Assembly: GCA_031549025.1 (NCBI GenBank)
Contig: JAVBQN010000061.1
Span: forward strand, 6,882-70,881
From: Candidatus Adiutrix sp.
GTDB taxonomy: Bacteria; Desulfobacterota; Desulfarculia; Adiutricales; Adiutricaceae
Direction: 5' to 3'
Length of the DNA: 64,000 bases
A program made the position numbers and the translations under genes. Shown here piece by piece: positions 9,159-25,011 of this stretch (the first letter of the stretch is position 1; every line of letters begins with the position of its first letter). The notes beneath the pieces are model-generated. The model was not told the DNA's origin. It saw only the letters and a list, made by a program, of their open reading frames with translations, and searched no databases.

Positions 9159-11931
9159 AGAGCCCCTGACCATCATCACCACCCACTTCAACCCCGACTA
9201 TGACGCGGTGGGCTCCATGGTGGCGGCGCGCAAGCTCTATCCCGAGGCTTTGCTGGTCTTTCCCGGCGGGTCGGAGAAAAACCTGCGCCATTTTTTCATC
9301 CAGTCCCTCATCCACCTCATCGACCCGGCCCGGGTGGGCGATGTGGACCTCTCCCGGGTGGGGCGGCTGGTGGTGGTCGATACCCGCCAGCCCTCGCGCC
9401 TGGGCGAGGTGCAGGCCGTCCTGGCCAACCCCGACCTGGACATCCACCTCTACGACCACCACCCCGACGCCCCGGGCGACCTCAAGGGCGAAGTGGAGGT
9501 GGTGGAACCGGTGGGGGCCACGGTGACGGTCCTCACCGAACTCATCAACGACTGCGGCCTGAAACTTCTGCCGGAGGAAGCCACCATGATGGCCGTGGGC
9601 CTCTATGAGGACACGGGCTCCTTCACCTTCAGCTCCACCACCGGGCGCGACTACCTGGCCGCGGCCGAGCTCCTGCGCCAGGGGGCCGACCTGGCCGTGG
9701 TCTCGCAACTGACCGTGCGGGAACTGACCACCGAACAGCTGGCCTTGCTCAACGAACTCATCGACTCCGCCGAGACCCGCCAGGCCCGGGGCCTGAGCTT
9801 CGTCATCGCCACGGCCCAGATCGAACACTACGTCGACGACGTGGCCGTCCTGGCCCACAAGATGATGGAAATCATGGGCCTGTCGATCCTCTTCGTCCTG
9901 GTGGCCATGGACAACAAGGTGCAGCTCATCATCCGCTCCCGCCTGGGCTCCATCAACGCGGCGGCCATCGCCCGGGAATTCGGCGGCGGCGGGCACCCTT
10001 CGGCCGCGGCGGCCAGCATCAAGAACATGAGCCTGAGCCAGGCCAAGAAACGTCTCGACGAAATCCTGTCCGAAACCTTAGGGGCCTTCTACAACGCCCG
10101 GAATCTCATGGTCTATCCGCCCATCACCATCGGCGACTGGCAGACCCTGGAAGAGGCCCGGGAAGTGCTGGTCAAGTTCAGCATCAACGTTCTTCTCGTG
10201 GTGAACCGGGAGGAACAGGTCATCGGCTTCATCTCCGAGCACAACGTGTCCAAAGCCCTGTACCACGGCCTCCTGGACTACCCGGTGAGCGCCTTCATGA
10301 ACACCGAATTCCTGGCCGTGGGCCCGGAGGCCACCTTCATGGAGGTCAAGGAGATCATCGTGGACCGGAAGCAGCGGGTGCTCCCGGTGGTGGAGGGGAA
10401 AAAGCCGGTGGGGGTCATCACCCGCACGGACCTTCTCCAGGTGCTGGCCGGCACCGGCGGCGAGGAAGGCGGCTCCACCGCGGCCCGTTCCGACCCGGGC
10501 CGCCGCAACGTGGCGGCCCTGATGCGGGAGATGATGCCCCCGCCGCTGTTGGCCTTCCTGGAACGCATGGGCCGGACGGCCGACGAGACCGGGGTGAACC
10601 TGTATGCCGTGGGCGGCTGCGTGCGGGACCTCATCATGCGCAAGCCCTCCCATGACGTGGACCTGACCATGGACGGCGACATCGACGACTTCATCGCCCG
10701 GGTCGCCCGGTCCCACCGGGTGACCAAGGTCATCCGCCACCCCCGCTTCAAAACCGCCACCCTGGAGACGGCCGACGGGCTGGTGGTGGACGTCTCCACC
10801 ACCCGGCGCGAATACTACGAGCACCCCGGAGCCCTTCCGGTGGTGCAGACGGGTTCCCTGCACATGGACCTGTATCGGCGCGACTTCACCATCAACAGCC
10901 TGGCCGTGGCCCTCAACTCCGGCAACTTCGGCGAGGTGATGGATTTCTACCGCGGCTACCAGGACATCAAGGACGGCTACATCCGGGTGCTGCACAACCT
11001 CAGTTTCGTCGAGGACCCCACCCGGGCCTTCCGGGCCGTGCGCTTCGAAGCCCGCCTGGGCTTCAAGATCAGCAAGATGACCGCCAGCCTTCTGGAAGGG
11101 GCGGTGCGGAACAAGTTCCTCACCAGCATCGACCGCCGGCGCCTGTTGCACGAACTGAAACTGATCCTGAGCGAGGAGGACCCCGGGCCGGCCATCAAGC
11201 GCCTGAACGATTTCGGCCTCCTGCCCTTCATCCACCCCCAGCTCATCCTGAGCGGAACCCACGCCAAGCTCTTCACCCGCGTCCGCCGGGTGCGCGACTG
11301 GTTGGGGCTCACCTTTCCCGAGCGGCTGGACCAGGCCTGGTTCGTCTATCTCATCGCCCTGACCGACCGCCTCAAGCTCCACGAGCTGGACACCCTGGCC
11401 CGGTCCCTGACGCTGAAGAAAAAAGACGCCCAGATCCTCACCGCCGAGCGCCCCCTGGCCGACGAAATCCTGGCCCATTACAAAAAACCTCTGGGCCCCC
11501 TGGCCGCCAGCCTGACCTACCGCCTCCTGTCGGAACTGAGCTGGCCGACCATCCTTTACATCATGGCCAAAACCGAAAATGAGGAACTGTCCCAGGCCGG
11601 GGTGGGCTTCCTGACCATGTACCGCCAGGTGAAACCCTTGTCCACGGGCCGCGATCTGATCGCCCTGGGCCTGCCCCAGGGGCCGCGCATCCACGAGGCC
11701 TACGAAACGCTGCGCCTGGCCCGGCTCGACGGCCTGGTCCGCACCCGGGTGGACGAAATCGAATACGTGCGGAAGCTCCGAGAGGCCAACTGGCCGCCCT
11801 ACGCGCCACCCAACTCGCCGCCCCTCCCCGCCCGCTTCCTCCGCCCGGACCGCCTCGGCCGAAAACGGGACCACAGCCCGTTGGGCCAAGAGCTGAATGA
11901 GGAACAGACCAGCCACTGCCACCGCCGCTGA
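9130..11931 (+). CDS. DHH/DHHA1 - CBS pair - poly(A) polymerase/CCA-adding nucleotidyltransferase fusion protein
   Basis: 933 aa. The N-terminus has TTHFNPDYDAVGS...DHHP...GGGGHPSAAA (DHH/DHHA1). The middle has two CBS-like repeats. The C-terminus has YAVGGCVRDLIM...DVDL...RRDFTINSLA (PolyA_pol head domain). Confidence 0.85.
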   Translation: MNQKTPKKRKEPLTIITTHFNPDYDAVGSMVAARKLYPEALLVFPGGSEKNLRHFFIQSLIHLIDPARVGDVDLSRVGRLVVVDTRQPSRLGEVQAVLANPDLDIHLYDHHPDAPGDLKGEVEVVEPVGATVTVLTELINDCGLKLLPEEATMMAVGLYEDTGSFTFSSTTGRDYLAAAELLRQGADLAVVSQLTVRELTTEQLALLNELIDSAETRQARGLSFVIATAQIEHYVDDVAVLAHKMMEIMGLSILFVLVAMDNKVQLIIRSRLGSINAAAIAREFGGGGHPSAAAASIKNMSLSQAKKRLDEILSETLGAFYNARNLMVYPPITIGDWQTLEEAREVLVKFSINVLLVVNREEQVIGFISEHNVSKALYHGLLDYPVSAFMNTEFLAVGPEATFMEVKEIIVDRKQRVLPVVEGKKPVGVITRTDLLQVLAGTGGEEGGSTAARSDPGRRNVAALMREMMPPPLLAFLERMGRTADETGVNLYAVGGCVRDLIMRKPSHDVDLTMDGDIDDFIARVARSHRVTKVIRHPRFKTATLETADGLVVDVSTTRREYYEHPGALPVVQTGSLHMDLYRRDFTINSLAVALNSGNFGEVMDFYRGYQDIKDGYIRVLHNLSFVEDPTRAFRAVRFEARLGFKISKMTASLLEGAVRNKFLTSIDRRRLLHELKLILSEEDPGPAIKRLNDFGLLPFIHPQLILSGTHAKLFTRVRRVRDWLGLTFPERLDQAWFVYLIALTDRLKLHELDTLARSLTLKKKDAQILTAERPLADEILAHYKKPLGPLAASLTYRLLSELSWPTILYIMAKTENEELSQAGVGFLTMYRQVKPLSTGRDLIALGLPQGPRIHEAYETLRLARLDGLVRTRVDEIEYVRKLREANWPPYAPPNSPPLPARFLRPDRLGRKRDHSPLGQELNEEQTSHCHRR

Positions 11932-12154
11932 AGATTGGCTGAACTGATGATCCCGAGGCCGTACGCCGTTTTCGACTTTTGCCCCCCCTCCTGGCGCTGC
12001 CGCCGCCCCGGCCCTGGCCGCCGAGACCGCCACGGCCCAGAGCGAGTTTCTGGCCGACCTGGCTTCGGAGTTCCGCTCCGCCGCTCCGCCGGACTATCCG
12101 GCCGCGGCCGCCGCTTAGATGGCGTCCATTATTGACAACCATCTCACCCTGAAC

Positions 12155-12976
12155 CTAATACTCATCCACCTCTATGTTGTAGCTAAACTCCGGAGTCGGG
12201 AAAGCGCCGCTGACGGTTTCGGCATAAAATTTATTGAGCGCTTCGACGACCATCGGTCGCAATTTATTGTATTGCTTGACAAACTTTGGCTTAAAGTCTC
12301 CGAACAGGCCGATCATATCGTAAAGGTTTAGTTCCTGGCAGTCGCAGTGGGGCCCCGCGCCGCAGCCCAATGTGGGAATCTCCAACGTCTCGGTAATCTT
12401 TTTAGAAACGGCGCTGGGAACGCATTCCAGACCAACGGCAAAAGCGCCGGCTTCTTCAACGGCCAGCGCGTCTGCCATCACCTTATCAGCGGCGGCTTTG
12501 GTCGCGCCCTGCACTTTAAAGCCGCCCAAGGCGCTGGCGGACTGCGGGGTAAGGCCGATATGAGCGCATACCGGAATGCCGGCATTGACGATGGCCTTTA
12601 TTTGAGGCGCCATGATGGCGCCGCCTTCCAGCTTGACACAGTCGCAGCCGCCCTCTTTCATAATGCGGTTGGCGGTCTCAATGGCTTGCTCGCAGCTTAC
12701 GTTGTAGGAGCCAAACGGCATATCGCCCACAATGAAGGTGTTGGGCGCCCCCTTTACAACGGCTTTGATATGATGGATCATCATATCGACAGTTACGGGG
12801 ATGGTGGAGCCCATGCCCAGCATAACATGGCCCATTGAGTCGCCAACCAGGATCATATCTGTTTTGCTCTCGTCCACAATACTCGCCATCGTATAGTCAT
12901 AACAGATGACCCAAGTCCATTTTATCCCTTCCTGCTTATACTTTTTAAAGTCCGGAACCGTCATCTTCTTTTTCAT
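12155..12976 (-). CDS. panB: 3-methyl-2-oxobutanoate hydroxymethyltransferase (ketopantoate hydroxymethyltransferase)
   Basis: LVGDSMGHVMLGMGSTIPVTVDMMIHH, VGDMPFGSY, VKLEGG and HIGLTPQS...GGFKVQG are canonical PanB motifs. Confidence 0.88.
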   Translation of the reverse strand: MKKKMTVPDFKKYKQEGIKWTWVICYDYTMASIVDESKTDMILVGDSMGHVMLGMGSTIPVTVDMMIHHIKAVVKGAPNTFIVGDMPFGSYNVSCEQAIETANRIMKEGGCDCVKLEGGAIMAPQIKAIVNAGIPVCAHIGLTPQSASALGGFKVQGATKAAADKVMADALAVEEAGAFAVGLECVPSAVSKKITETLEIPTLGCGAGPHCDCQELNLYDMIGLFGDFKPKFVKQYNKLRPMVVEALNKFYAETVSGAFPTPEFSYNIEVDEY

Positions 12977-13034
12977 AAATAACCCTCTTCTAAAATACTA
13001 TTCCTGGGAAACCGGGGCTGTCCTAAAGAACCGG

Positions 13035-13808
13035 CTATGTCAACCGGGAAATCATCCCGCCGTCCACCACGATGGTAATGCCGTTTAAATAATCTCCGGC
13101 ATGGGAAGCAAGCATAATGGCCAGCCCCTTGAAATCGTCCGGAGTAGCCCAGCAGCCCAGGGGAATTCTCTGTAAGCTCTTTTCGTAGCGCTCCGTATCC
13201 TTCAGGACCGCCTCGGTAATCTGCGTATGCGTAAACCCGGGCGCAATAGCGGTGGTACGAATTCCATACTGGCTCCATTCGTCGGCAAAACACATGGTGA
13301 GCTGGCGCACGGCGGCCTTGGTCGCCTGATAGGCGGGAATATTCTTTACGGTACTGATAAAGGCGGCCAGGGAGGAGTTATGGATTATTTTCCCATAATT
13401 CTTCTTTTTCATGATCTCGGCTGCGCGCCGGCTGATATCGAACAAGGCCGTCATATTGACTTCGACGATTTCGTCCCAGGCTTCAATCGGGAAGACATCG
13501 ATAGGAATTCGTTTGGTGATGCCCGCGTTGTTGACTAAAATATCCAATTCGCCGTTGAGCTTTTCAACACATTCATCGAAAGCGGCGGCGCGCTGTTTTC
13601 TGTCAAGAAGGTTCATTTTGACCGGATGTACCTGGTCGAGCCCTTTTTTTTCGAACTCTTCGCGGGTTTCGTAAATCGCATCGCTGGAACCGGTTATGAC
13701 GACCTCGGCGCCATATTCAAGGTAGCCTTCAGCGATGCTTTTTCCAATTCCTTTTCCGCCGCCGGTTACAATGGCTTTCATGCCTGCCAACGAAAAAATG
13801 TCGCTCAT
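13035..13808 (-). CDS. Short-chain dehydrogenase/reductase (KduD/FabG-like)
   Basis: ORF 13035..13889 trimmed to MSDIFSLAGMKAIVTGGGKGIG (TGxxxGIG). NNAG and YQATKAA (YxxxK) are present. Confidence 0.85.
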   Translation of the reverse strand: MSDIFSLAGMKAIVTGGGKGIGKSIAEGYLEYGAEVVITGSSDAIYETREEFEKKGLDQVHPVKMNLLDRKQRAAAFDECVEKLNGELDILVNNAGITKRIPIDVFPIEAWDEIVEVNMTALFDISRRAAEIMKKKNYGKIIHNSSLAAFISTVKNIPAYQATKAAVRQLTMCFADEWSQYGIRTTAIAPGFTHTQITEAVLKDTERYEKSLQRIPLGCWATPDDFKGLAIMLASHAGDYLNGITIVVDGGMISRLT

Positions 13809-14026
13809 TTTCCTCTCCTGTTTCATTTTTTTGCAAAACCGGCGATGAGGCGGCAGGGAGAATTGCGAGAAAACCAAACGCTGAACCATTACCTGGCCCC
13901 CGTTTCCGCATGCGATAGCGACCGGTTAAAGTTTTTGCTTTTCATTGAGCAATCAGCATCCGGGGCCCCTGGAATTCTTCCTGCCATGCCTATCCGTCCG
14001 GCAATCGATCCAGACTCACAAGCCGT

Positions 14027-14944
14027 TCAGCCGCCGACGCTGATATGAACATTCCCGCAACTAAGCGAGTCCTTAACGCTCCCGAACGCATCCATATCCA
14101 ACGAAACCCGGCCGCTGATTTTCCTGAACGAATATACGTTTCCCATTGCGGTATACTTGTTGCTGCCGTATTCGTGGTAAGGCAGGAAGTTCAGAAGCGT
14201 GACGCCCAGATTATTCGCCAAATCAACGATTCCCTGCAGCGTCGCCTGGTCGTCGTTGATATTCGGGATTACCGGTACGCGTATGATGACGCGGCGTTTT
14301 TGCCTCGCCAGCCACTCAAGATTGCTCAGAATCAACTTATTGTCCACGCCGGTAAACTGCTTGTGCTTCCCGGGGTCCGAATGCTTTACATCATATAGAT
14401 ATGTATCCACATAGGGATCCACCATCCGCAGCGTTTCCAGCGAACAGTGCCCCGCCGTTTCCATGGCGGCGGGAAGTCCTTCCTCCTTTGCCCGTTTAAG
14501 CAGCGCCAACGCGAAGTCCGCCTGCGCCAGCGGTTCCCCCCCGGAAAGCGTCAGACCGCCGCCCGACAACTTGTAAAAGACCGTATCGCGCATGACTTCG
14601 GCAAATACCTCGTCAACCGTCATCGCCAGCCCGCGCATAACCAACGCGTCCGCATAACACACTTCGCAACAGTCGCCGCAGTCCGTGCACCGTTCCCGGT
14701 CACAGGCGATACCCGTGTCATCGCTCCAGCTCAGCGCCTTCCGTCCGCACTTCTCGACACAGGCCTGGCATCCGATGCACTTGTCTTTCCATTGAAAAAG
14801 CTGCCGCTTGATCTCCTTTGACTCCGGATTGCTGCACCACATGCAATCCAACGGACAGCCTTTTAAAAATACAATTGTCCTTATGCCTTTGCCGTCGTGC
14901 AGCGAAAAACGCTGAATGTCGAATACAGTTCCTTCGTGTACCAT
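14027..14944 (-). CDS. Glycyl-radical enzyme activating protein (radical SAM)
   Basis: FDIQRFSLHDGKGIRTIVFLKGCPLDCMWCSNPE (CX3CX2C) plus two ferredoxin-like motifs, CIGCQACVEKC and CTDCGDCCEVC. An alternative start at 14980 would overlap the GRE stop by 8 nt. Confidence 0.9.
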   Translation of the reverse strand: MVHEGTVFDIQRFSLHDGKGIRTIVFLKGCPLDCMWCSNPESKEIKRQLFQWKDKCIGCQACVEKCGRKALSWSDDTGIACDRERCTDCGDCCEVCYADALVMRGLAMTVDEVFAEVMRDTVFYKLSGGGLTLSGGEPLAQADFALALLKRAKEEGLPAAMETAGHCSLETLRMVDPYVDTYLYDVKHSDPGKHKQFTGVDNKLILSNLEWLARQKRRVIIRVPVIPNINDDQATLQGIVDLANNLGVTLLNFLPYHEYGSNKYTAMGNVYSFRKISGRVSLDMDAFGSVKDSLSCGNVHISVGG

Positions 14945-14972
14945 TTCTGTATCCTTTCCGATATACAGTCCA

Positions 14973-17357
14973 TCAGGCATTGGCGCTATGGGCCGTTCTC
15001 CGGATGATCTCTTCCTGAATCTCCTTCTCCAGCCGCGTGAACAACGCACTGTAGCCAGCCACCCGCACGACCAACCCCTTGTATTTCTCAGGGCTGGCCT
15101 GCGCCTTCCGAAGCGTCTCAGTCGTCAGCACATTGTACTGGCATTCCCAGCAGTCAAGCTCGGCTATGCCCCGCATATAGCTGTTAAAGCTATCCGTGGA
15201 GTTTTCTCCCACGAACACGGAAGGATGGAATTTCTGGTTGAGCACACAGCCGTGCAGGATCTCAACGTGATCCAGCTTGCCGACCGATTTCAGGACGGCG
15301 GTCGGGCCTTTTCTGTCCATTCCGTGCGTCGGCGATATGCCGCCGTCATTGAGCGGCCTGGTGGCCCGGCGCCCATCCGGCGTCGCCGCCGTAATCAGGC
15401 CAAAGGGGATGTAGGAGGTCACGTAATACAACCCGCCAATGAAGGGACCATTGCCTCTGTTGCATTTCTGCCGCCCCAGCGCGTCCATATAGATATGCAG
15501 CACCTGGTTGTTCATCCCGTCGGCTTCGTCCGAGTCGTTGCCAAACTTCGGCGCGCGATTGAGCAACATCTGCCGGATCGGCTCGTTTCCCTCAAAGTCG
15601 GCCTCCAGAACCTCCAGAAGCTTGGCCATCGTGAGCCTCTTTTGGTCGAAGACCAGCGTCTTAATGGCCTGAAGCGAATCGCCCGCCGTGATCAGGCCCA
15701 CACCCAACGGGGAGGCCGTGTTGTAGCGCGCCCCGCCCGCGTTGAACTCCACCCCGTCCCTGATGCAGTCCTGCGTTACCACCGAGTAAAGCGGCACCGG
15801 ATAATAGTTTTTTTGGCAGTATTCCAGAACAGCGTCGTAATCCGCGATGGCGTCGGTGAAGTAGTCGACCTGCGCGCGAAATGCGTTCAGCACCACCTCA
15901 AAGCTCTCGGCGTTGGCCATATCGCCGGTCCGGGGGCCCATCTGCTGTCCGGTGAGCATACATTTACCGTGGTTCAGAGCGAGTTCCAGGCATTTGGCCA
16001 GGTTGATTTGTCCCGCGTTGCCCCAGCTGTTCGTTTTCCCGCTGACGACCGCTTCGCTGCAGCCGAAATTGCACCAGTCTTCCGCGTCGCCCGGCTCGGT
16101 GCCCAAGGAACGCATGGCCTCCACGACGACTTCGTCGCCAAACACCTTGATCTTGTTGATACCCTTTTTGACGCCCTCCCCGATCTTGGCCAAAAACTCC
16201 TCAGGGGCGGTCTTGGTGAGGCGCACGGCAATATCCGGCTGAGCCAGACTGGTACGATAATCCGCTTCCAGCAACAGGATGGTCAGGTCGTTCACACAGT
16301 CCTTGCCGTTTCTGTCAACCCCGCCCAGCGTCATGCATCCTATGGCCGGTCCTTGCTGGTGCCGGGTCGCCTCGTTTGAGTAAATCTTGTCGATTTCGTT
16401 ACATTTGAGGAAGAAATATTCTGACAGGAGAAGCGCGTCCTCTCGGCTCATACCTTCATTCCGGGAATTTTGATAATAGGGAAACAACGTCTGGTCCAGC
16501 CGCCCGTAGGCGATTGAAAGGCCGTTGGATTCGAGCTGCATGACCAATTGGATAAAATGCACGAACTGCAGCGCTTCGTGATAGGTGTGGACCGGCTTTG
16601 CGGGCACGTTCCGGCAAACCTCCGCTATCTTTCTCAGATCCTCGGCCCGCTCGGGATCCTGTTCCCGGGCGGCCTCTTCCTCGGCCAGATCCGCATAGCG
16701 TCCGGCAAAGGTGATCATGGCCTCGCAGGTGATGATGCATGCCTCATAAAAGGCGGTCTTCTCAATATAGTTGTAGTCCACCCGGGTTCTGTTCAGATCG
16801 GCCAGCTTTTCGCGGCATTCCTCAATGATGCTTAAAAACCCGCGGGAGAGCATCCGTTCGTAATCCGGGGACATATGGCCTGGACCCGACATGTTGAAGT
16901 TCGTGTTCTTAATGACGCCTAAACGCAATATCGCTCTCAGCGGTTCGGGGGTGAGCGCGTATGACCTGTCGTCCATGCTGTAGCCGGCCCACTTTTCAAG
17001 ACATTTTCGCAATATCTCCTGCTGCTCTTCGGTGATCTTGAATCTGTCACCTATGCGGGTCTCAAAGGTGTGCATCTGATCTCTAATCCACTTGTAGCCG
17101 TATTCTGGGAAGAGGGGCACACTGCGTTTTTTGATCCCCCCCTGATTACCCACGAAAATTTCGTGCTCACGGACCACAACGGTCATTTTCGTCAGGAGAT
17201 CTTTCAGCACCAGCGCGCGCTGCACGATGGGGGGGGACGCAATATGCGTGAAAAAGGATTCGGTTACAATCTCCACGCGTTCCGTATCAACGCAGCGATC
17301 ACAATTAAGGAAATCTTCACGTAAAATCTTGATATTGTCTTTCATGACAGATGCCAC
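14973..17357 (-). CDS. Glycyl radical enzyme, PFL2/glycerol-dehydratase-like family, substrate unknown
   Basis: 794 aa. It has the C-terminal glycine-radical motif VVRVAGYSALF and the Cys loop NFGCSEAVV (Cys-x-Glu, as in the 1,2-eliminase/dehydratase class rather than the PFL Cys-Cys). Confidence 0.9.
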   Translation of the reverse strand: MASVMKDNIKILREDFLNCDRCVDTERVEIVTESFFTHIASPPIVQRALVLKDLLTKMTVVVREHEIFVGNQGGIKKRSVPLFPEYGYKWIRDQMHTFETRIGDRFKITEEQQEILRKCLEKWAGYSMDDRSYALTPEPLRAILRLGVIKNTNFNMSGPGHMSPDYERMLSRGFLSIIEECREKLADLNRTRVDYNYIEKTAFYEACIITCEAMITFAGRYADLAEEEAAREQDPERAEDLRKIAEVCRNVPAKPVHTYHEALQFVHFIQLVMQLESNGLSIAYGRLDQTLFPYYQNSRNEGMSREDALLLSEYFFLKCNEIDKIYSNEATRHQQGPAIGCMTLGGVDRNGKDCVNDLTILLLEADYRTSLAQPDIAVRLTKTAPEEFLAKIGEGVKKGINKIKVFGDEVVVEAMRSLGTEPGDAEDWCNFGCSEAVVSGKTNSWGNAGQINLAKCLELALNHGKCMLTGQQMGPRTGDMANAESFEVVLNAFRAQVDYFTDAIADYDAVLEYCQKNYYPVPLYSVVTQDCIRDGVEFNAGGARYNTASPLGVGLITAGDSLQAIKTLVFDQKRLTMAKLLEVLEADFEGNEPIRQMLLNRAPKFGNDSDEADGMNNQVLHIYMDALGRQKCNRGNGPFIGGLYYVTSYIPFGLITAATPDGRRATRPLNDGGISPTHGMDRKGPTAVLKSVGKLDHVEILHGCVLNQKFHPSVFVGENSTDSFNSYMRGIAELDCWECQYNVLTTETLRKAQASPEKYKGLVVRVAGYSALFTRLEKEIQEEIIRRTAHSANA

Positions 17358-17367
17358 CTTTCCAGGG

Positions 17368-18375
17368 TTATTTGCTCTGACTCAATTGGTAAGCGACATC
17401 GACGATCATGTCTTCCTGTCCGCCAACCATTTTTCGATTGCCAAGCTCCACTAAGATGTTCAGCGGGTTGACGCCGAACTTTTCCGCGGCCCGGTACGTG
17501 TGGAGTAAAAAGCTGGAATATACGCCTGAATATCCGAGCATCATGGAGGCGTTGTCAATGATCTGCGGGCGTTTCATGGCCGGGCCGACGATTTCTTCGG
17601 CCACGTCTAACAAGCGATAAAAGTCAATGTCCGTACCGTATCCCTGACGTTTGAGAATTCCCGCGAGCACCTCGATCTGGCAATTTCCGGCTCCGGCGCC
17701 GAGCCCGCGGCAGGTTCCGTCGATATAGGACGCGCCGGACTCCACGGCGGCTAGCGAGTTGGCTATGGCCAGCCCTAAATTATTGTGCGCGTGGAAGCCC
17801 ACGGGCACGGGAAGCTTTTCCGCCAGATAGTCAATTCTGGTGCGAACGCCATCCGGGAGGAGGTATCCGGCTGAGTCGGCGATGTTGACATAATCGGCTC
17901 CGGCGTCCACAAAAATCATCGCCTGCTCGTAAAGCTGCTCGGGGGAAACCATATGCGCCATCATCAGGAAACCAACCGGCATGATGCCGTTTCGCTTCGC
18001 GTACGAAATGTGCTGGATTCCAATATCCGCTTCCGTACAGTGAGTGGCGACGCGTACGATGCTGGCGCCATTTTCATGCGCCTGCTCCAGATTCTCGATC
18101 GTGCCGATGCCAGGTATCAACAGCACCGCCAGGCGCGCTCTTTCCATTACGGAGACGGCGGCCTGGTGAAGATCGCATTCATTTGACTCCAAAAACCCGT
18201 AATTGATGGATGATCCCGCGATGCCGTCTCCGTGGGCGACTTCAATAATTTGGATTCCCGCCTGGTCAAGCCCGGAAACGATCGCGCGGGCCTGCTCCGG
18301 CGTAAAGCTGTGGCTCACCGCATGGCTTCCGTCACGCAGAGTAGTGTCGACCAAGGTAATTTTTGGATTATTCAT
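17368..18375 (-). CDS. 4-hydroxy-2-oxovalerate (4-hydroxy-2-oxoacid) aldolase, DmpG/MhpE/BphI type
   Basis: ITLVDTTLRDGSHAVSH, GFHAHNNLGLAIANSLAAVESGA and DGTCRGLGAGAGN match the HMGL-like DmpG family including its C-terminal communication domain. Confidence 0.9.
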   Translation of the reverse strand: MNNPKITLVDTTLRDGSHAVSHSFTPEQARAIVSGLDQAGIQIIEVAHGDGIAGSSINYGFLESNECDLHQAAVSVMERARLAVLLIPGIGTIENLEQAHENGASIVRVATHCTEADIGIQHISYAKRNGIMPVGFLMMAHMVSPEQLYEQAMIFVDAGADYVNIADSAGYLLPDGVRTRIDYLAEKLPVPVGFHAHNNLGLAIANSLAAVESGASYIDGTCRGLGAGAGNCQIEVLAGILKRQGYGTDIDFYRLLDVAEEIVGPAMKRPQIIDNASMMLGYSGVYSSFLLHTYRAAEKFGVNPLNILVELGNRKMVGGQEDMIVDVAYQLSQSK

Positions 18376-19244
18376 TATCGTTCCCCCCTTAGTACCCGCC
18401 CGGCGACAATATCCGCGGCCGCGGCCGCCGCCGCGTTATGGATATCGAGATTTCCGGAATACTTCGGCAGATAATCTCCAGCTCCTTCGACCTGAATGAT
18501 TACGGTCACCTTGTTGCCGTCTATGATGGGAGGAACCCGGAGCCGGTAATTGGGCACATATTTTTGCACCTCCTGGACAATGTCGTTTACGGATTCCTCG
18601 ATCGCCTTTTTGTCGGGATCGCGCACAAATGAATGGATGGTGTTGGTCATCAGGAGCGGCGGCTCCGCCGGATTGAGGATGATGATGGCCTTGCTTCGAT
18701 CGGCGCCGGCCACGGTACGCAGCGCTTTGGCCGTCGTCTGCGTAAATTCGTCGATGCTGGAACGGGTACCGGGGCCGGCACTTTTGGAGGCGATGCAGGC
18801 GATGATTTCGGCATATTCCGTATTCGCCGCCCGATTGACGGCGTAGGCAATGGGCACGGTCGCCTGGCCGCCGCAGGTGACCAGATTATAATTGTCCACG
18901 TTTCCAAGGCGACCGAGGTTGACGCAGGGCACCACAAAAGGCCCCACCGCCGCGGGCGTAAGATCAAATACAATCTTCCCGGCCTCTTTCAGCAAGGGGG
19001 CATTTTCCAAATGCCCGGAAGCGCTGGTCGCGTCGAACACGATTTTGATGTCGGTGCGATCGGCCAACACGGAGGCGCCGTGGGGCGACACATCAATTCC
19101 CATATTGGCTGCGCGCTGGAGTCCTTCGGATTTTCTTCTTCCGACCACCATCGCAATTTCCATATGTTGACTACGCTTGATCTTGAAGATCAAATCAGTG
19201 CCGATATTGCCCGGTCCAATGACGGCGGTTTTTATTTTTTCCAC
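18375..19244 (-). CDS. Acetaldehyde/aldehyde dehydrogenase (acylating), DmpF/MhpF/BphJ type
   Basis: [26 protein letters not shown] (catalytic Cys) and [12 protein letters not shown]. The stop/start shares 1 nt with the aldolase gene, as in dmpFG-type pairs. Confidence 0.9.
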
Positions 19245-19265
19245 AATAACCTGCTTCCAGTTGCC

Positions 19266-20351
19266 TTAGCTGTTTGTCTTCGGAAACACGTAGGGGGACA
19301 CGTCAAGGCCTTGCGCTTTGGCCGCATCCAGCATGTCATCCAAGATTTTTTCCGAAATTTTGAGACCTTCCTGCCCGCTTTCCGCTTCCAGCTTCGCCTC
19401 TATCTCGCCGGGATACATAATGCCGGGGGACCCTTCCCGCACAGGCAAGCCATGCAAATATTCGATATACTGATCCACTTTGCCGCGATAGACGTCGATA
19501 TCCTCAAAGATGCCGATGTCTACGGCCAGGAAGCAGTGGCTGGTGGCGAAATCCGCGAAATTGACCGCTGCGGAGGCGTTTTCAGGCAGAGTGTGGAACA
19601 TCGAGCCCGCCAGGATGGAAGTCATCGTTTCCCCAATGACGCCCAATCCAAAGCCCTTATGGTGGCCAAAAGGCATCATGATATATTCAGGCAAGGGGAA
19701 TTTGGTGGAATCCGTCGTCATTACGCCGTCGGGTCCCAGCCAGGCATTTTCCGGGAAGGGCTGGTTGAGGCGCTGATATTCAAAAATTTTGCCCTGCGCC
19801 ATATATCCGACCGCGACATCAAGACAGATGTTGGCATATTCCCCGGCGGGCACGGACCAGGAAAACGGATTACTGCCGATGGCGCGGCTTATGCCGTTCG
19901 GCGCCGCGACCGCAGCGATGGAATTGGTGGTAACGTAGCCGATCATATCCTTTTGAGCCAGCAGCAGCGACCAATAAGCGGCCTCCCCGAAATGATTGCT
20001 GTTACGTACCACGGTCATGGCCATTCCGCTCTGTTTGGCTTTCGCCCGGGTAATTTCGCAGCATTTCTTGCTCACGACGGCACCCGGGGCATTGCCGGCG
20101 TCGATCACGGCGGAAACAGGGGTTTCCTTTATGGTGACAAGGTTCATTTTCGTGCCGAAATCTCCGTCCTTGAACATTTGAATATAGCTTGGGATACGAA
20201 CCACGCCATGGCTTTTCACGCCGCGCGCATCCGCTTTGGTCAGTGTTTCGGCCAGAGTGTGGGCATCCTCCTCGACTAAACCGCAGGTCATAAAAATCCG
20301 TGTGCCAAGCTCTATCAGTTTTTCAAGGCTTACTCGATATGCCGCTTCCAT
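19266..20351 (-). CDS. Ldh2-family (malate/L-lactate/sulfolactate/diketogulonate-type) NAD(P)-dependent dehydrogenase
   Basis: ORF 19266..20573 trimmed to MEAAYRVSLEKL. GVKSHGVVRIPSY, NSNHFGEAAYW, IGSNPFSW and HKGFGLG match the Ldh_2 family. Confidence 0.82.
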   Translation of the reverse strand: MEAAYRVSLEKLIELGTRIFMTCGLVEEDAHTLAETLTKADARGVKSHGVVRIPSYIQMFKDGDFGTKMNLVTIKETPVSAVIDAGNAPGAVVSKKCCEITRAKAKQSGMAMTVVRNSNHFGEAAYWSLLLAQKDMIGYVTTNSIAAVAAPNGISRAIGSNPFSWSVPAGEYANICLDVAVGYMAQGKIFEYQRLNQPFPENAWLGPDGVMTTDSTKFPLPEYIMMPFGHHKGFGLGVIGETMTSILAGSMFHTLPENASAAVNFADFATSHCFLAVDIGIFEDIDVYRGKVDQYIEYLHGLPVREGSPGIMYPGEIEAKLEAESGQEGLKISEKILDDMLDAAKAQGLDVSPYVFPKTNS

Positions 20352-20475
20352 AGCCACGGTCACTCCTTTCCGCGAACAATGCGAGCTTGTATTTTCCCGC
20401 CGGCTTGCACGCGGCTCACCAGCGGGAAAAACCCCGCTCTTCCTTTGACAGGAGGCGCTTGAGTGCAAGGCCGTC

Positions 20476-21516
20476 TCACGACGGGTTTTTCTCAATCCAC
20501 TGAAACACATCTTCGCCGATGATCTTTTTGTTTTTCTCGTGGACAGGAACCAAACGCGCTCTGAATTCCTCAAAATCAGGATACGTCAGATTAACACCCA
20601 ACTTCTTCATCTCTTCAACGGCACCGGTCTGGTTCCATTCCCTGGACCATTCGTTGGTTTCACGAATCGCCGTGACGGCCGCTTCCCGAATGATCTGCTG
20701 ATAATCAGCGGGCAGGGTGTCGAGGATTTTTTTGCTCCCGATAAATATGTGGGTCAATTGGAACCACGGAACCATGGCATAGTTGGGCGCCACTTCATAA
20801 AAACGCATCGACATATACGTGGCCTGCTGGTTGTCCATGCCGTCGATAACACCGGTCTGTAGCGCCTGATAGCACTCGTTGTAAGGCATGGGCGCGGCCA
20901 TGCCGCCCAGAGCCGCTATCCCGTCGACAAACATGGAAGACGGCATCACCCGAATTTTCAGGTTCTTCAAGTCGGCCACGGACTTGATGGAATGCTTCGG
21001 GGAAGTGAGAATATATCGGCCGCCAATCGTCACCCCGCCATAGGCTTCAAGCCCGATATCCGCAAGCGTGTCGAGCCTTTTCCTCGCGACGTCACTCTTG
21101 AGGAAGTTGTCCAGGTGATCAAAGCTTTCGAACAGCATGGGGGTATCCAGAAACAGAAGCTGATCCGTAAAGGTGGCGAAATTCGCACTCGCGCAATTGG
21201 CGAAAGCAAGATCGCCCGTGCGCATCATTTCGATATAGTCTTGTTCGACGCCCAACGAACCGCCAGCGTGCAGAATGAATGTTACATTCCCATTCGTTCT
21301 TTTTTCCACTTCCGCCATAAACTTTTTGAGCGGGATCACAATGGCGTCGCGGTCGTTGTCAACGGTCACCGAAGCGACATGAAGCTTGAATTTTTCCGTG
21401 CTGGTGGCCACCGTCGCGCCGGACGGGTCGGCCGCGCTTACAGTACCGCCGTATCCGGCCATGAGCAAGGACAGCACCGTCACCAACATGGCCCTCGTAA
21501 CTCTCGTATTTTTCAT
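20476..21516 (-). CDS. TRAP transporter substrate-binding protein (DctP family)
   Basis: Signal peptide MKNTRVTRAMLVTVLSLLMAGYGGTVSA, then DctP-like LKIRVMPS..., QALQTGVIDG and FYEV. Confidence 0.85.
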   Translation of the reverse strand: MKNTRVTRAMLVTVLSLLMAGYGGTVSAADPSGATVATSTEKFKLHVASVTVDNDRDAIVIPLKKFMAEVEKRTNGNVTFILHAGGSLGVEQDYIEMMRTGDLAFANCASANFATFTDQLLFLDTPMLFESFDHLDNFLKSDVARKRLDTLADIGLEAYGGVTIGGRYILTSPKHSIKSVADLKNLKIRVMPSSMFVDGIAALGGMAAPMPYNECYQALQTGVIDGMDNQQATYMSMRFYEVAPNYAMVPWFQLTHIFIGSKKILDTLPADYQQIIREAAVTAIRETNEWSREWNQTGAVEEMKKLGVNLTYPDFEEFRARLVPVHEKNKKIIGEDVFQWIEKNPS

Positions 21517-21703
21517 TCCTGACTCTCCTCTCACTATTTCTGACTATTGGCTGCAACAAAACCGAACGATTGTTCCACCTGGCCTGCCATTATTATTGAC
21601 TCACCTCCTGGAAATACGTTTTGCCGAATCTGCCATTTATCCTTGAAGACACTATGGGGCGGCTTTAAAAACAAAGCCGGTACGCCAGCGCCTCCGTTCC
21701 GAA

Positions 21704-23008
21704 TTACCCGATTTTCAATCCCAACAGCCGCGGCAGCCACAGGAAGCTGTCGGGGAAAACCGTCACGATAACTGTAATAATGCAATACAAAATGACGAAA
21801 GGTATGATCGCCACGCAGATCTTCTCCAGCGGCTGCTTCAAAATAAAGCTGGATGAGAAAAGGTAGGTGCCCACCGGAGGCGTGATGCCGCCGGCGAGAT
21901 TGCTGATGAGGAACAGGGCGGCAATATGGAAGGGATTGACGCCCAGCGGAGCCAACGCGGCCACGGCCGTGGGTGCGAGTACGACACACAATGAGATGGT
22001 GTCGATAAAACAGCCGGCAATCATCAGGATCAGCAGCAGGAACAGCAGCCCCCAAACGGGGTTGCCCACGCTGATCGAAACCAGATAATCGATGAACATC
22101 TGGGTGATGCCGGTAAAACTCATAGCATAACTGAGAATGTACGACGTGGATATCAAGAAGAGGATGATGGCCGAGGTGGAGGCGGTGCCGATCATGATAT
22201 CGTAAAAGACGCGAACGGTCAGCTTCCTGTAGGCCATGGCCATCATCAGGGACAACACGGACCCGACCGCCCCCGCCTCGGTCGGCGTAAAGACGCCGCC
22301 GTACATCCCGCCGATGATCACAATCGGCACCAGCATTAACGGGGCGGCTTTTAAAATGGATTTGACCTTTTCTCCGAAGGTATAGGTCTCCGTGGTGCCG
22401 CCATAGCCCCTTCTGGCGGCCACGAAAGAAATAAGGATGGTCAGCCCGATGATGGCCATCAAGCCTATCGCAAAATCCACAATGAACAGGTCGCTGATGG
22501 AAATTCCGGCGGCAACGCCCAGCACGACACAGGCGATGCTGGGCGGGATCAATGATCCCAACGGGGCGGCACTGGCGATGACCGCGGCTGTCCAATTACC
22601 CGGATAGCCTTTTTTCATCATTTCCGGGCCAATCAGATTGCAAAAGGTGACGCAGGTGGCATTGGCGGACCCGGTCAACGCGCCGAACATGGCACTGGCA
22701 TAAACGACCACCAAAGCCAACCCGCCGCGCAGACGGCCGATAATCGGCATGATGGCGTTTACAAGCATGGCGGCCATCCCGGTTCGCTCAAAGATGATCC
22801 CCATGAGGGTAAAAAGGAAAATGGCCAGGAGGGAGTGCGAAATGAAGGGCGCGAATATGCTCTTTAAGATGATCGTGACATTCAAGCCGAACATCAATAG
22901 GGCTATAACGCACGCGCTGCCCATGGAGAAAGTGAGGGGCACGCCCAGGAACAAAAAACCGAAGAAGGAAATGAATAATACCGCAATCACAACAGATTGA
23001 CTTATCAT
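21704..23008 (-). CDS. TRAP transporter large permease (DctM family)
   Basis: ORF trimmed to MISQSVVIAVLF. About 434 aa, highly hydrophobic, DctM-like throughout. It overlaps the dctQ stop by 4 nt (ATGA). Confidence 0.88.
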   Translation of the reverse strand: MISQSVVIAVLFISFFGFLFLGVPLTFSMGSACVIALLMFGLNVTIILKSIFAPFISHSLLAIFLFTLMGIIFERTGMAAMLVNAIMPIIGRLRGGLALVVVYASAMFGALTGSANATCVTFCNLIGPEMMKKGYPGNWTAAVIASAAPLGSLIPPSIACVVLGVAAGISISDLFIVDFAIGLMAIIGLTILISFVAARRGYGGTTETYTFGEKVKSILKAAPLMLVPIVIIGGMYGGVFTPTEAGAVGSVLSLMMAMAYRKLTVRVFYDIMIGTASTSAIILFLISTSYILSYAMSFTGITQMFIDYLVSISVGNPVWGLLFLLLILMIAGCFIDTISLCVVLAPTAVAALAPLGVNPFHIAALFLISNLAGGITPPVGTYLFSSSFILKQPLEKICVAIIPFVILYCIITVIVTVFPDSFLWLPRLLGLKIG

Positions 23009-23547
23009 TGTTCTTCCCCAATCCATACCGTGATAATTTTGAATAGGCAACGGGCACACATAACCAGCAGCACAACCACTCCCACGCCGTATATGAATCC
23101 GTACGATATACCCAGTGAAATGGTTTTCTGGGCGATATACATCGGCATCATCGAAAGCCCTTTGATGCCGGCCAGCCCCGCAAATAAAAGCATGACCCCA
23201 TAGATCAAGGTAAAATAACACTTTCTAAACGCCACATTGGCACTCGTTTTTACCCGGCTTGAAAAAATTTCTATGGCGGGGTGTCCATCTACTCCAATCA
23301 GATAGCTAACCCCCCAAAAGGTCAGCCAAACATAGAGCATGATCGAAAGTTCTTCCGTGTAGGGCGCGGGTATAGAGAACAAATAGCGTGCGGCGACCCC
23401 CCAGGTCATATTGACAAACAGCAGAAGGCTCGCTAAAAACATACAAAATTTTTCAACGCGAACCACCCCGGCGTCAATCAGGTGAATCATTTTCATCACG
23501 CCTTTACACTTTCCAGCCTTAACATCGCTAATAATTTCATTAGGCAT
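23005..23547 (-). CDS. TRAP transporter small permease (DctQ family)
   Basis: ORF trimmed to MPNEIISDV (RBS-like GGAATGGGGAAAC upstream). About 180 aa with 4 hydrophobic segments, positioned immediately upstream of dctM. Confidence 0.75.
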   Translation of the reverse strand: MPNEIISDVKAGKCKGVMKMIHLIDAGVVRVEKFCMFLASLLLFVNMTWGVAARYLFSIPAPYTEELSIMLYVWLTFWGVSYLIGVDGHPAIEIFSSRVKTSANVAFRKCYFTLIYGVMLLFAGLAGIKGLSMMPMYIAQKTISLGISYGFIYGVGVVVLLVMCARCLFKIITVWIGEEQ

Positions 23548-24156
23548 AGTTTCCCCATTCCTGGCCTGACTTTGACCCCTCCGAATATGGGCGCATTCGC
23601 TTCGGTTCAGGAGCCACGCGCGTTCCCCCGGGCAACTGTTTTCGGGTACTTCCCAAACAGCCCCCATTCGAGCCGGGCAAACCTCAGATGGCCCGCTCCC
23701 GTTTTTCACAATCGTCAAGAGACATGCGTTCTCCTTAAGTACGAAAAAATCTGGATAAAAACTCCAACCTCCGGGGGCGGCTTTCTGCGGCCTTAATCTC
23801 GGTCGCTTCTGAGCAATGGCGCGCTTCGGCCGCATAGGATGAGCGTGGCCAAAGCGGGCAGCATCATGCTGGCGGATGGGGATACTTTGACGGTCACATC
23901 GGCCATGGCCAGTTGACTACCCCGCAGGATGTTTGTCATGTGCCCGGCTTCATAGTATGGAGTGTATTCATTGCGCACCAGCCCAGCTTTCCTCGAAGAG
24001 GCAATGTCAGCAGCGGCCAATTCACTCGCCATCGACAAATATCATTTGTTTATTATGTAATACGGAAGGATGATTTTAAAGAACCCCTTTGACAAGTGTT
24101 GTTAGTTGTCAGGGCAAAATCAGTAATATGACCAGAGATTCACCAAAGAGCATTTT

Positions 24157-24181
24157 GTTCGTTATTGCCGAACGTCGTTCG
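24157..24181. promoter_or_regulatory. Candidate operator: GTTCG-N7-CGAACG-T-CGTTCG half-site cluster
   Basis: gttcgttattgccgaacgtcgttcg contains the 6-1-6 palindrome cgaacg-t-cgttcg (24169-24181) plus an upstream inverted half-site. A second inverted repeat, tgacaa-N10-ttgtca, lies at about 24091-24112. Both sit in the 684-bp gap between the IclR gene and dctQ. Confidence 0.3.
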
Positions 24182-24231
24182 TAATGCAAGGTAAAAAATA
24201 TATGAATAACCACTCCCGGTCGAGCCCGGCT

Positions 24232-25011
24232 TCAACGCTTCAGACAGTATCCCAAATACTCCGATACTTTGTTGGTGCATGCCAGCAGACCAGTTTTGAT
24301 TTCATCCATCTGGAATTCCTTTATGCGCCCCAAGGGAAAAGAAACGCTGATCGCCATTTGCGGTTGGGCTAAATGGTTGAACACGGGAGCCGCCACACAA
24401 TCGAGTCCCGGCTCAATTTCCCCCCTGTCAACTGCCACGCCTGCCCGGCGGATCTTCTCCAGCTCCAATCGCAGGATGTCTTTATCGGTGATCGTGTTTT
24501 CCGTCAGCTTGATTAAGGGCACCTCGGTGATGTAGGCATTCACGTAGTCCTCGGGCATATGAGCCAGGATAGCTTTCCCTACGCCAGTGCAGTACATGGG
24601 GGCCCGCTTCCCAATCTGCGAGTAAACGACAAGCGCGTTAGTATTCTCGATTTTGTCGATGTAAATGATCTCGAAATTCGAGGGCACTCCCAAATGGACG
24701 GTGGCCGGATACTTTTGCGCCAGGGTTTGACAGACGACGCTCGCTTCCCGCCTGGCATCCATCCGCGATTGGACCAAATTACCAAATTCAAACAGGCTGA
24801 TTCCTAGTCTGTAACGCTTATTGGTAGGCAACTGTTCAAGAAAAAAGTAAGCTGTCAGGGTGTTGACCATGCCGTATACGGTACTTTTGCTCAACCCCAG
24901 CATGCTGGACAATTCGGATATCCCCAATTCAGCGTTATTAGCGAAGCAGGCCAATATATCCATCGCCCGCGCAACAGATTGAACCTGGACACCTGGTCGC
25001 TCCTTGCGCAT
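24232..25011 (-). CDS. IclR family transcriptional regulator
   Basis: QSVARAMDILACF...LGISELSSMLGLSKSTVYGMVNTL (wHTH), and a C-terminal effector domain with CTGVGKAILA and GLDCVAAPVF. Confidence 0.9.
   Translation of the reverse strand: MRKERPGVQVQSVARAMDILACFANNAELGISELSSMLGLSKSTVYGMVNTLTAYFFLEQLPTNKRYRLGISLFEFGNLVQSRMDARREASVVCQTLAQKYPATVHLGVPSNFEIIYIDKIENTNALVVYSQIGKRAPMYCTGVGKAILAHMPEDYVNAYITEVPLIKLTENTITDKDILRLELEKIRRAGVAVDRGEIEPGLDCVAAPVFNHLAQPQMAISVSFPLGRIKEFQMDEIKTGLLACTNKVSEYLGYCLKR

Follow-up and report, generated by a model that had tools for sequence, protein, structure and literature searches.

A glycyl radical enzyme from a family without characterised members is encoded together with a DmpFG-type aldolase-dehydrogenase pair in a putative island for anaerobic hydroxy-carboxylate degradation

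The Cys-x-Glu loop defines a class of GREs (glycyl radical enzymes) acting as 1,2-eliminases or isomerases, and the characterised members of this class are glycerol dehydratase, propanediol dehydratase, HpfG, HypD, HpyG, HpzG, CutC, IslA/IseG, HpsG, HplG, YbiW, and PflD (PMC13450708). In glycerol dehydratase, Cys433 abstracts a hydrogen atom, Glu435 deprotonates the C1 hydroxy group, and His164 protonates the leaving C2 hydroxy group (PMC13450708). Newly assigned GREs have so far revealed unsuspected anaerobic pathways of gut and sediment microbes for choline, hydroxyproline, isethionate, 2,3-dihydroxypropane-1-sulfonate (DHPS), and anhydro-hexitols. Pairs of a 4-hydroxy-2-oxoacid aldolase and an acylating aldehyde dehydrogenase of the DmpFG, BphIJ, MhpEF, or HsaFG type are known from aerobic meta-cleavage and steroid pathways. 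Here, a GRE gene that is located directly downstream of a DmpFG-type pair is described in a stretch of 64,000 nt from Candidatus Adiutrix sp. (contig JAVBQN010000061.1, positions 6,882 to 70,881). This whole stretch is called the window, and coordinates refer to it unless another locus is named. As had been supposed in a sequence-only reading of this DNA, no characterised GRE pathway with a DmpFG pair was found in the literature searched, including a review of characterised Cys-x-Glu GREs from June 2026 (PMC13450708).

The same reading had placed five genes on the minus strand. Scoring with Pfam and NCBIfam models, together with motifs read from the translations, bears out all of them:

19266-20351, minus strand: Ldh2-family 2-hydroxyacid dehydrogenase (PF02615, 300 bits)
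18375-19244, minus strand: DmpF-type acylating aldehyde dehydrogenase (TIGR03215, 414 bits; cut-off 282)
17368-18375, minus strand: DmpG-type 4-hydroxy-2-oxoacid aldolase (TIGR03217, 489 bits; cut-off 286)
14973-17345 (ATG start, 790 amino acids) or 14973-17357 (GTG start, 794 amino acids), minus strand: GRE of the Cys-x-Glu type with PFL-like and Gly_radical domains
14027-14944, minus strand: GRE-activating radical S-adenosylmethionine enzyme (TIGR02494, 336 bits; cut-off 174)

These genes form the centre of a 13.5-kb island of 11 genes, all on the minus strand. The interval considered in the sequence-only reading had been restricted to the central five and left out the genes for an IclR-family regulator, the subunits DctQ, DctM, and DctP of a tripartite ATP-independent periplasmic (TRAP) transporter, a short-chain dehydrogenase/reductase (SDR), and PanB. 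We propose that the island encodes an ATP-independent anaerobic route which converts a TRAP-imported hydroxy-carboxylate, most likely a C4-C6 sugar acid or a keto-deoxy derivative thereof, into pyruvate and acyl-CoA, and we give this proposal about even odds (probability roughly 0.5). It builds on observed gene identities, catalytic residues, family placement, and synteny. The arrangement of the five genes is beyond chance, as they lie in a co-directional block with a distinct base composition that recurs in part in a contig from a termite-gut metagenome. The components are all of known kinds and do not constitute a new type of system; it is the specificity of the GRE and its coupling to DmpFG that are undescribed in the literature searched.

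The GRE has the features of its superfamily, with a PFL-like barrel (PF02901, 621 bits), a C-terminal glycine-radical domain (PF01228, Gly_radical, 98 bits) containing an RVxG[FWY] loop, and an adjacent cognate activase. Its key residues are Cys433 and Glu435 in the motif GCSE (residues 432-435), Gly768 in the motif RVAGYS (residues 765-770), and His161, which aligns with His164 of glycerol dehydratase. In an alignment of 19 family sequences, Cys433, Glu435, and His161 are invariant and Ser434 reaches a conservation of at least 90%. As all three catalytic residues are kept, the enzyme is predicted to be equipped for removing a hydroxy or alkoxy substituent adjacent to a carbinol carbon. An assignment as 2-oxoacid lyase of the pyruvate formate-lyase type was rejected, because the cysteine loop is Cys-x-Glu and not Cys-Cys. 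An AlphaFold model of the GRE (pLDDT 87.6) superposes on all eliminases with TM scores of 0.90-0.94 and a highest identity of 36%; the latter is reached with glycerol dehydratase 1R8W at a TM score of 0.94. The least confident loops of the model are located near residues 331-340, 641-650, and 671-679. The activase contains the motif CPLDCMWC (CX3CX2C) and two ferredoxin-like auxiliary cysteine clusters, and it scores below every substrate-specific activase equivalog.

With none of the curated equivalog models for GREs did the score exceed roughly half of the cut-off. The NCBIfam models for Klebsiella HpfG and for HpsG gave 560 and 499 bits (cut-offs 1000 each), those for HypD, CutC, and the YbiW/PflD type (PRK09983) 550, 500, and 538 bits (cut-offs 1100, 1050, and 1109), and those for indoleacetate and 4-hydroxyphenylacetate decarboxylases 358 and 254 bits (cut-offs 1100 and 1150). 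Solved structures of the characterised Cys-x-Glu enzymes, which are available for all but HpfG, are 30-36% identical to the GRE. A search of 5.8 billion proteins yielded at least 120 clusters (90% identity) with 46-68% identity to it, nearly all of which carry the signature PGH / NGL[AS] / GCSE / SWGN / NDGGISP. The combination L[AS] / CSE / [WG]GN was absent from all 83 other GREs compared, namely glycerol dehydratase, the two GREs of locus L136, and a sample of 80 GREs from GTDB species. Twenty positions are specific for the family, including the invariant lysines Lys402 and Lys404. Single-linkage clustering on pairwise identity (38-45%) put all GREs into one component, and the pocket signatures and the score gap were used for delimitation instead: after clustering of a library at 50% identity, one full-length sequence with 839 bits stands for the family, and the next family follows with 599 bits and 39% identity. 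When contigs were searched with a profile of motifs generic to PFL2 enzymes, only GREs with 33-40% identity were found. Members of the family originate from sediments, guts, Spirochaetes, Clostridia, and Deltaproteobacteria. Judged by these signatures and the score gap, the GRE belongs to a discrete and populous family without a characterised member. This agrees with its earlier description as an orphan, and in this network-type placement it does not fall together with IslA, HpsG, HypD, or propanediol dehydratase.

The best match among known enzymes is the B12-independent glycerol dehydratase DhaB1 of Clostridium butyricum (1R8W/1R9D; 564 bits, TM score 0.94, 36-37% identity), which shares the 10-strand barrel, the glycine loop, Cys433-x-Glu435, and the general-acid histidine with the GRE. 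In contrast to glycerol dehydratase, the GRE has Leu for His281, Gly for His446, Asn for Asp447, and Ser for Val434, the loop around Tyr339 is remodelled, the family-invariant Lys402 and Lys404 are present, and its genes are linked to an anion importer and not to genes for 1,3-propanediol formation. Propanediol dehydratase (Roseburia inulinivorans 5I2A; 9RCO series) resembles the GRE in its eliminase fold (TM score 0.94) and in delivering an aldehyde to an acylating dehydrogenase, but it is only 34% identical, its HS and WHD motifs are absent from the GRE, the island has no shell genes, and the dehydrogenase is of the DmpF and not of the PduP type. Identity with glycerol or propanediol dehydratase was rejected, since Leu280-Ser281 and Trp-Gly-Asn447 replace His281-Ser282 and Trp-His-Asp447, and since identity to 1R8W is 36-37% compared to 53-58% for true sequences of the glycerol dehydratase type.

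A related function as a diol dehydratase after the aldolase was also considered. In this case, DmpG would split a keto-deoxy sugar acid, the SDR or Ldh2 would reduce the resulting hydroxy-aldehyde to a neutral polyol, the GRE would dehydrate it, and DmpF would act in a PduP-like manner. This would suit the fact that no solved enzymes are closer in sequence or in structure than glycerol and propanediol dehydratases, and that a position near Tyr339 is hydrophobic (Ile) as in propanediol dehydratase (Phe), although this alignment is ambiguous by one residue. His281 and Asp447, however, are conserved in both dehydratases and are Leu and Asn here, identity is only 34-37% compared with the above 53-58%, and the island encodes no microcompartment shell, dhaT, or pdu genes. 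In addition, the conserved genomic link is to an anion-binding protein of a TRAP transporter, and DmpG-DmpF pairs normally channel the aldehyde directly. Such a role is therefore considered unlikely.

The anhydro-hexitol-6-phosphate isomerases YbiW and PflD operate together with aldolases of the fructose-6-phosphate aldolase (FSA) type in 'anhydroglycolysis', in which the GRE produces a deoxy-keto compound that is split by the aldolase (PMC13450708). The logic proposed for the island is the same, but the enzymes are only 32-34% identical, the substrates of YbiW and PflD are phosphorylated neutral sugars, and the aldolase class and the uptake system are different. The GRE could accordingly be a ring-opening isomerase like YbiW, PflD, or HplG, which would open a cyclic or anhydro sugar acid at an internal C-O bond and thereby provide DmpG with a keto-deoxy acid. 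The Cys-x-Glu apparatus would be the same, and sequence cannot separate ring opening from dehydration; moreover, the known anhydro-hexitol route also sends the GRE product straight to an aldolase (PMC13450708), and one locus with a sister GRE (L001) has an aldolase of the transaldolase (TAL)/FSA family directly after the activase. Given the low identity to YbiW and PflD and an island in which no gene suggests where an anhydro or cyclic acid would come from, we regard this variant as improbable, albeit not negligible.

Indications for the substrate class come from the four genes upstream of ldh2:

24232-25011, minus strand: IclR-family regulator, KdgR-like, with HTH_IclR and IclR_C domains
23005-23547, minus strand: TRAP small membrane subunit DctQ (PF04290, from the precomputed annotation of an identical contig)
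21704-23008, minus strand: TRAP large permease DctM (PF06808, 273 bits; TIGR00786, 297 bits; cut-off 268)
20476-21516, minus strand: TRAP periplasmic solute-binding protein DctP (PF03480, 192 bits)

The three subunits of a TRAP transporter are thus all present and adjacent; the start of DctQ was chosen by alignment and corresponds to Met58 of a longer open reading frame. The best solved relatives of DctP include 4N8Y, 4X8R, and 7BBR, whose ligands are galacturonate, glucuronate, and 2-keto-3-deoxygluconate, respectively (PMC11668362). The IclR protein matches the KdgR model with 182 bits (cut-off 275). Further matches of DctP are 4P9K and 4PAK, which we take to be binders of erythronate and pantoate.

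TRAP genes recur beside other members of the GRE family. DctP orthologues with 49-50% identity are encoded directly beside GREs in the loci L133, L134/L135, and L136, and the GREs of L133 and L134 are 44-45% identical to that of the window and have the same L-A/CSE/GGN signature. Because DctP orthologues adjoin GREs in this way, the anion imported by the TRAP system, or a close derivative of it, is probably the substrate of the GRE. The pocket loop at residues 334-341 (approximately 16330-16360) reads QGPAIG-CMTLGG in the GRE compared with the family consensus QGPAHGQ[CT]ITLGG, i.e. His is replaced by Ile and one residue is deleted. In the alignment, which is ambiguous by one residue here, the affected position falls close to Tyr339 in glycerol dehydratase, where propanediol dehydratase has Phe. 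The TRAP-linked GREs of L133 and L134 have Val or Ile where the family has His, and Ile/Val at this site may be a determinant of specificity that tracks the DctP orthologue group. As a separate observation, L134 (10001-21068), L135, and L136 (6516-16729) each have a single DctPQM set with two different flanking GREs of about 800 amino acids; the two GREs of L136 are each accompanied by a separate activase, and both lie outside the family of the window GRE (33-35% identity).

The combination of a TRAP-imported anion, a GRE with its activase, and the delivery of an aldehyde or ketone into central metabolism is also found in the HpfG/HpsG (DHPS) and IslA/IseG (isethionate) systems of sulfite reducers. 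The GRE differs from these enzymes by an identity of only 30-31%, by model scores at about half of the cut-offs, by a sulfonate-binding triad that is not evident on mapping by numbering offset, and by the absence of sulfite-handling genes. If the island nevertheless served a hydroxy-sulfonate resembling sulfolactate, DHPS, or a sulfo-sugar acid, the GRE would be a C-S lyase or a sulfonate dehydratase and Ldh2 a dehydrogenase of the sulfolactate type. The best named match of Ldh2 is indeed L-sulfolactate dehydrogenase (203 bits; PDB 2x06, 168 bits), the layout with TRAP genes and a GRE is that of isethionate and DHPS systems in sulfate and sulfite reducers (PMC13450708, PMC11668362), and Klebsiella HpfG is the top-scoring named GRE equivalog. 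Its 560 bits and the 499 bits for HpsG, however, are about half of the cut-offs of 1000, Ldh2 stays far short of the cut-off of 500 for sulfolactate dehydrogenase, and the island contains no gene for a sulfite exporter or a sulfite reductase. An Arg/Gln/Arg triad for sulfonate binding is reported to be specific to the C-S lyase cluster (PMC6453916). No such triad was found at fixed offsets from the catalytic cysteine in the set of GREs examined, and no additional Arg or Gln was found in residues 142-170 and 631-655 of the GRE, which were mapped by numbering offset and not by a true alignment. His161, the general acid for a hydroxy leaving group, is kept. The option of a sulfonate substrate, which the sequence-only reading had put beside a hydroxy acid, is weakened by the retention of His161, by the lack of extra Arg or Gln in the offset-based mapping, and by the solved relatives of DctP that bind sugar acids; we consider it very unlikely.

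The downstream enzymes define the type of product that is expected from the GRE. DmpG belongs to its aldolase equivalog and has an HMGL-like and a DmpG_comm domain (PF07836, 104 bits) and the motifs LRDGSHA and HAHNN, and its PDB matches are 4jn6_A, 4lrs_A, and 1nvm_A. Likewise, DmpF belongs to its equivalog, carries the dimerisation domain PF09290 (188 bits) and the catalytic cysteine in VTCGGQA, and matches 7z3s, 4lrs_B, and 1nvm_B. Equivalog scores, communication domain, translational coupling, and intact motifs are thus shared with DmpFG, BphIJ, MhpEF, and HsaFG. Unlike these systems, the island contains neither a hydratase gene (DmpE/MhpD) nor a ring-cleavage gene, its setting is probably anaerobic, and it would be the GRE that supplies or modifies the substrate. 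Ldh2 can be assigned only at the level of the Pfam family PF02615, since it remains below the cut-offs of the named equivalogs for sulfolactate dehydrogenase (203 bits; cut-off 500), the ureidoglycolate enzyme AllD (144; 496), and the 2,3-diketogulonate enzyme of the YiaK type (124; 316).

Homologues nearest to DmpG, with about 70% identity, occur abundantly in Clostridia and Lachnospiraceae. The nearest IclR-DmpF-DmpG modules (50, 65, and 71% identity) were found in strictly anaerobic Firmicutes, and in both loci examined (L138, positions 5646-11008, and L139, positions 8294-17943) they are located beside a dihydroxy-acid dehydratase of the IlvD/EDD type; in L138, the DmpF-DmpG genes are preceded by an IclR gene whose product is 50% identical to that of the window. 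The module of L138 also adjoins LtnD-like, PdxA2-like, four-carbon-acid-kinase-like, and KdgT genes. Non-phosphorylative sugar-acid routes of this kind, with an IlvD/EDD dehydratase and a keto-deoxy-acid aldolase, resemble the island in their homologous IclR-DmpF-DmpG genes, and its proposed route in the independence from ATP and in yielding pyruvate and a product derived from an aldehyde, but the window lacks the Fe-S dehydratase and has a GRE and its activase instead. By analogy, the GRE appears to take the slot of the dehydratase in the IclR-DmpFG module. One DmpG from such a module (P0252) has index entries in 179 blocks of the collection, which indicates that the module with an IlvD-like dehydratase is very common in gut metagenomes. 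No paper explaining DmpFG in those anaerobic Firmicutes was found.

In the proposed route, the TRAP system would import the acid, and Ldh2, perhaps with the SDR, would adjust C2 or an adjacent carbon in its oxidation state or configuration. The activase is predicted to install the glycyl radical on Gly768. The GRE would then eliminate water in a radical 1,2-elimination, in which the thiyl radical of Cys433 takes a hydrogen atom from a hydroxy-bearing carbon, Glu435 deprotonates this hydroxy group, and His161 protonates the neighbouring leaving hydroxy group. The resulting deoxy-keto acid would be, or become, a 4-hydroxy-2-oxo acid, which DmpG would split into pyruvate and an aldehyde. The aldehyde would be channelled to DmpF and leave as acyl-CoA with formation of NADH, and the KdgR-like IclR protein would control the unit. 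Substrate class, order of steps, regiochemistry, and the roles of the SDR and PanB are the parts of this scheme that we infer. The flow suggested in the sequence-only reading, from an imported acid via a 2-oxoacid and a GRE step to pyruvate and acyl-CoA, would be in line with the comparative data. Literature searches linking GREs to DmpG, pantoate, sugar acids, or tetronates gave no relevant result.

The route is supported by the close packing of its genes and by synteny with another locus. The spacers measure 21 nt between ldh2 and dmpF, 10 or 22 nt between dmpG and the GRE gene depending on the choice of start codon, and 28 nt between the GRE and activase genes, and the stop codon of dmpF overlaps the start of dmpG by 1 nt. 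The tight spacing noted earlier therefore stands, while the range given for it (1-22 nt) has to be extended to -1 to 28 nt. In the termite-gut metagenome contig L131, genes for DctQ, DctM, DctP, Ldh2, DmpF, and the start of DmpG follow each other in the same order, with 66-87% protein and 76-78% DNA identity to the window (DctQ 66%, Ldh2 83%); the TRAP-Ldh2-DmpF-DmpG part is repeated there at 78-87% protein identity. This contig ends where the GRE gene would be. As the order TRAP-Ldh2-DmpFG recurs in L131, the arrangement of GRE and DmpFG appears to be rare within the family rather than a one-off. The DmpG N-terminus of L131 had no match among the retrieved homologues.

Comparison loci of the GRE family (n=49) comprised 45 metagenome loci found by a clade-specific DNA pattern and four found by protein look-up. 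Several of them point to C-C bond cleavage after the GRE. The sister GRE in L001 (68% identity) is encoded beside a 3-oxo-tetronate kinase (406 bits; cut-off 350), an OtnC-like protein, a nickel-pincer isomerase, and the above-mentioned TAL/FSA-family aldolase. In L002 (1648-8893) and L122 (1719-8985), an Fe-S aldo-keto reductase gene occurs together with the genes for a sister GRE (68%) and its activase, and the latter are followed by genes for a protein of the 3-hydroxy-3-methylglutaryl-CoA (HMG-CoA) lyase family, a SauS/EutE-like acylating aldehyde dehydrogenase, and a protein of the succinate-CoA-transferase family. By analogy, both loci share with the window the logic of a GRE followed by a C-C lyase and the formation of an acyl-CoA. 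They adjoin genes of an acetoin-dehydrogenase-type E1/E2/E3 complex. Further family loci carry a GarD/UxaA-like dehydratase, 2-keto-3-deoxygluconate kinase, and 2-keto-3-deoxy-6-phosphogluconate aldolase, or CoA-transferase, MaoC, and crotonase. Small hydroxy-carboxylates and a C-C lyase after the GRE appear to be the common theme of these neighbourhoods.

Two genes at the downstream end of the island are less firmly connected to the others:

13035-13808, minus strand: SDR dehydrogenase, similar to KduD and gluconate 5-dehydrogenase (adh_short_C2, 170 bits)
12155-12976, minus strand: PanB, ketopantoate hydroxymethyltransferase (TIGR00222, 302 bits, cut-off 208; PF02548, 352 bits)

The SDR matches the KduD model with 226 bits, which is below the cut-off of 369, while PanB belongs to its equivalog (PRK00311, 352 bits; cut-off 272). 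A gap of 218 nt separates the SDR gene from the activase gene, and the SDR and PanB genes, which are 58 nt apart, may therefore form a separate transcript. A PanB gene is unusual in a catabolic island. The enzyme could act on a hydroxymethyl 2-oxo acid, with 4-hydroxy-2-oxobutanoate as one example, or could serve pantoate synthesis together with the SDR.

The latter possibility is part of an explanation in which the island is a mosaic: the GRE and its activase, with the TRAP system, and Ldh2-DmpFG would serve different pathways that share only their location, with the SDR and PanB as a pantoate-synthesis pair. This would be in line with the absence of DmpFG from all other GRE family loci sampled, the occurrence of DmpFG modules without GREs in Firmicutes, the 218-nt gap, and the score of PanB as a normal biosynthetic enzyme. 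It is opposed by the position of ldh2-dmpF-dmpG between the TRAP genes and the GRE gene with the above spacers and no terminator-like site, by the conserved TRAP-Ldh2-DmpF-DmpG order in L131, and by the single IclR gene that heads the block. We consider a mosaic rather improbable.

Several observations weigh against the proposed route to pyruvate and acyl-CoA. DmpF, DmpG, Ldh2, or PanB was found near the GRE in none of the 49 other family loci, many of which are on short contigs, and the link between GRE and DmpFG thus rests on one complete locus and on L131, which is cut before the GRE position. The pocket loop of the GRE departs from the family consensus by the His-to-Ile replacement and the deletion, and the contexts of the 68% identical sister GREs may consequently not transfer to the window. 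DctP, IclR, and the SDR resemble sugar-acid proteins at only about 30% identity or with scores below curated cut-offs. DmpF prefers small uncharged aldehydes, which is a poor fit to the hydroxylated aldehydes that would arise from C5-C6 sugar acids. Conventional non-radical sugar-acid dehydratases are widespread, and some family loci also carry a UxaA-like dehydratase, so that the need for a GRE is not obvious.

A bolder version of the proposal is possible, but clearly doubtful. In this version, the family would comprise the first GREs acting on carboxylate sugar acids, and the GRE of the window would replace an Fe-S or enolase-type dehydratase and feed DmpFG, so that a C4-C6 acid sugar of plant or host origin, e.g. 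threonate or erythronate, would be converted anaerobically and without ATP into pyruvate and acyl-CoA. In its most specific and speculative form, a tetronate would be dehydrated to 4-hydroxy-2-oxobutanoate, from which the C1 unit would be released by DmpFG as formyl-CoA or by PanB as methylene-tetrahydrofolate. Since 4-hydroxy-2-oxobutanoate is the demethylated analogue of ketopantoate, the product of PanB, the tetronate form would explain the presence of this gene. With an importer, a regulator, two dehydrogenases, and an aldolase-dehydrogenase pair of a well-defined substrate type, the window provides the most informative context for this GRE family, and the search is thereby narrowed to hydroxy-carboxylates that can be converted into 4-hydroxy-2-oxo acids. 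If the proposal is correct, this would possibly be the first GRE acting on sugar acids. The comparison also exposed two further undescribed modules, namely the GRE with an HMG-CoA-lyase-like protein and an acylating aldehyde dehydrogenase, and the IclR-DmpFG genes with an IlvD-like dehydratase.

The genes are embedded in a region of distinct composition, which also contains one structural element between dctP and ldh2:

12000-25500, no strand: low-GC genomic island holding the whole unit, delimited by GC content and GC content at third codon positions (GC3)
20421-20438, minus strand: hairpin AGCGGG-GTTTTT-CCCGCT in the dctP-ldh2 spacer, without a T-run

The island (approximately 12.0-25.5 kb) has a GC content of about 0.53 compared with 0.63-0.72 in the flanks, and GC3 values of its genes are 0.62-0.73 compared with 0.84-0.90. 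Judged by this composition, it appears to have been acquired horizontally by a host of higher GC content. Searches of the island edges gave no tRNA gene, Rfam family, integrase gene, or flanking repeats. Contig L005 of an independent Logan assembly (SRR23967709_103575) spans the positions 25320-12325 with 99.99% identity and covers almost exactly the island. A promoter-like site with 11 of 12 matches is located upstream of the IclR gene (25068-25040). Just upstream of this gene at the island edge, there is an open reading frame of 120 amino acids (25049-25411, minus strand; GC3 0.53), which is doubtful as a real gene. The GC-rich hairpin lies in a spacer of 124 nt and, as it lacks a T-run, probably does not act as a full terminator; by stabilising or attenuating the transcript, it may set how much binding protein is made relative to the enzymes.

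The genes in the flanks include those for flagellar hook proteins and for an RnfB-like Fe-S protein as well as lipopolysaccharide heptose genes, which points to a flagellated Gram-negative host with a high GC content that is probably an anaerobe. An unusually long FlgE (856 amino acids) and FlgD are encoded at 25583-28964 (minus strand). At 9130-11931 (plus strand), there is an open reading frame of 933 amino acids that, by eye only, resembles a fusion of DHH, CBS, and nucleotidyltransferase domains, and a protein of 711 amino acids, in which an NCS2 permease is confined to the C-terminal half, is encoded at 33371-35506 (minus strand).

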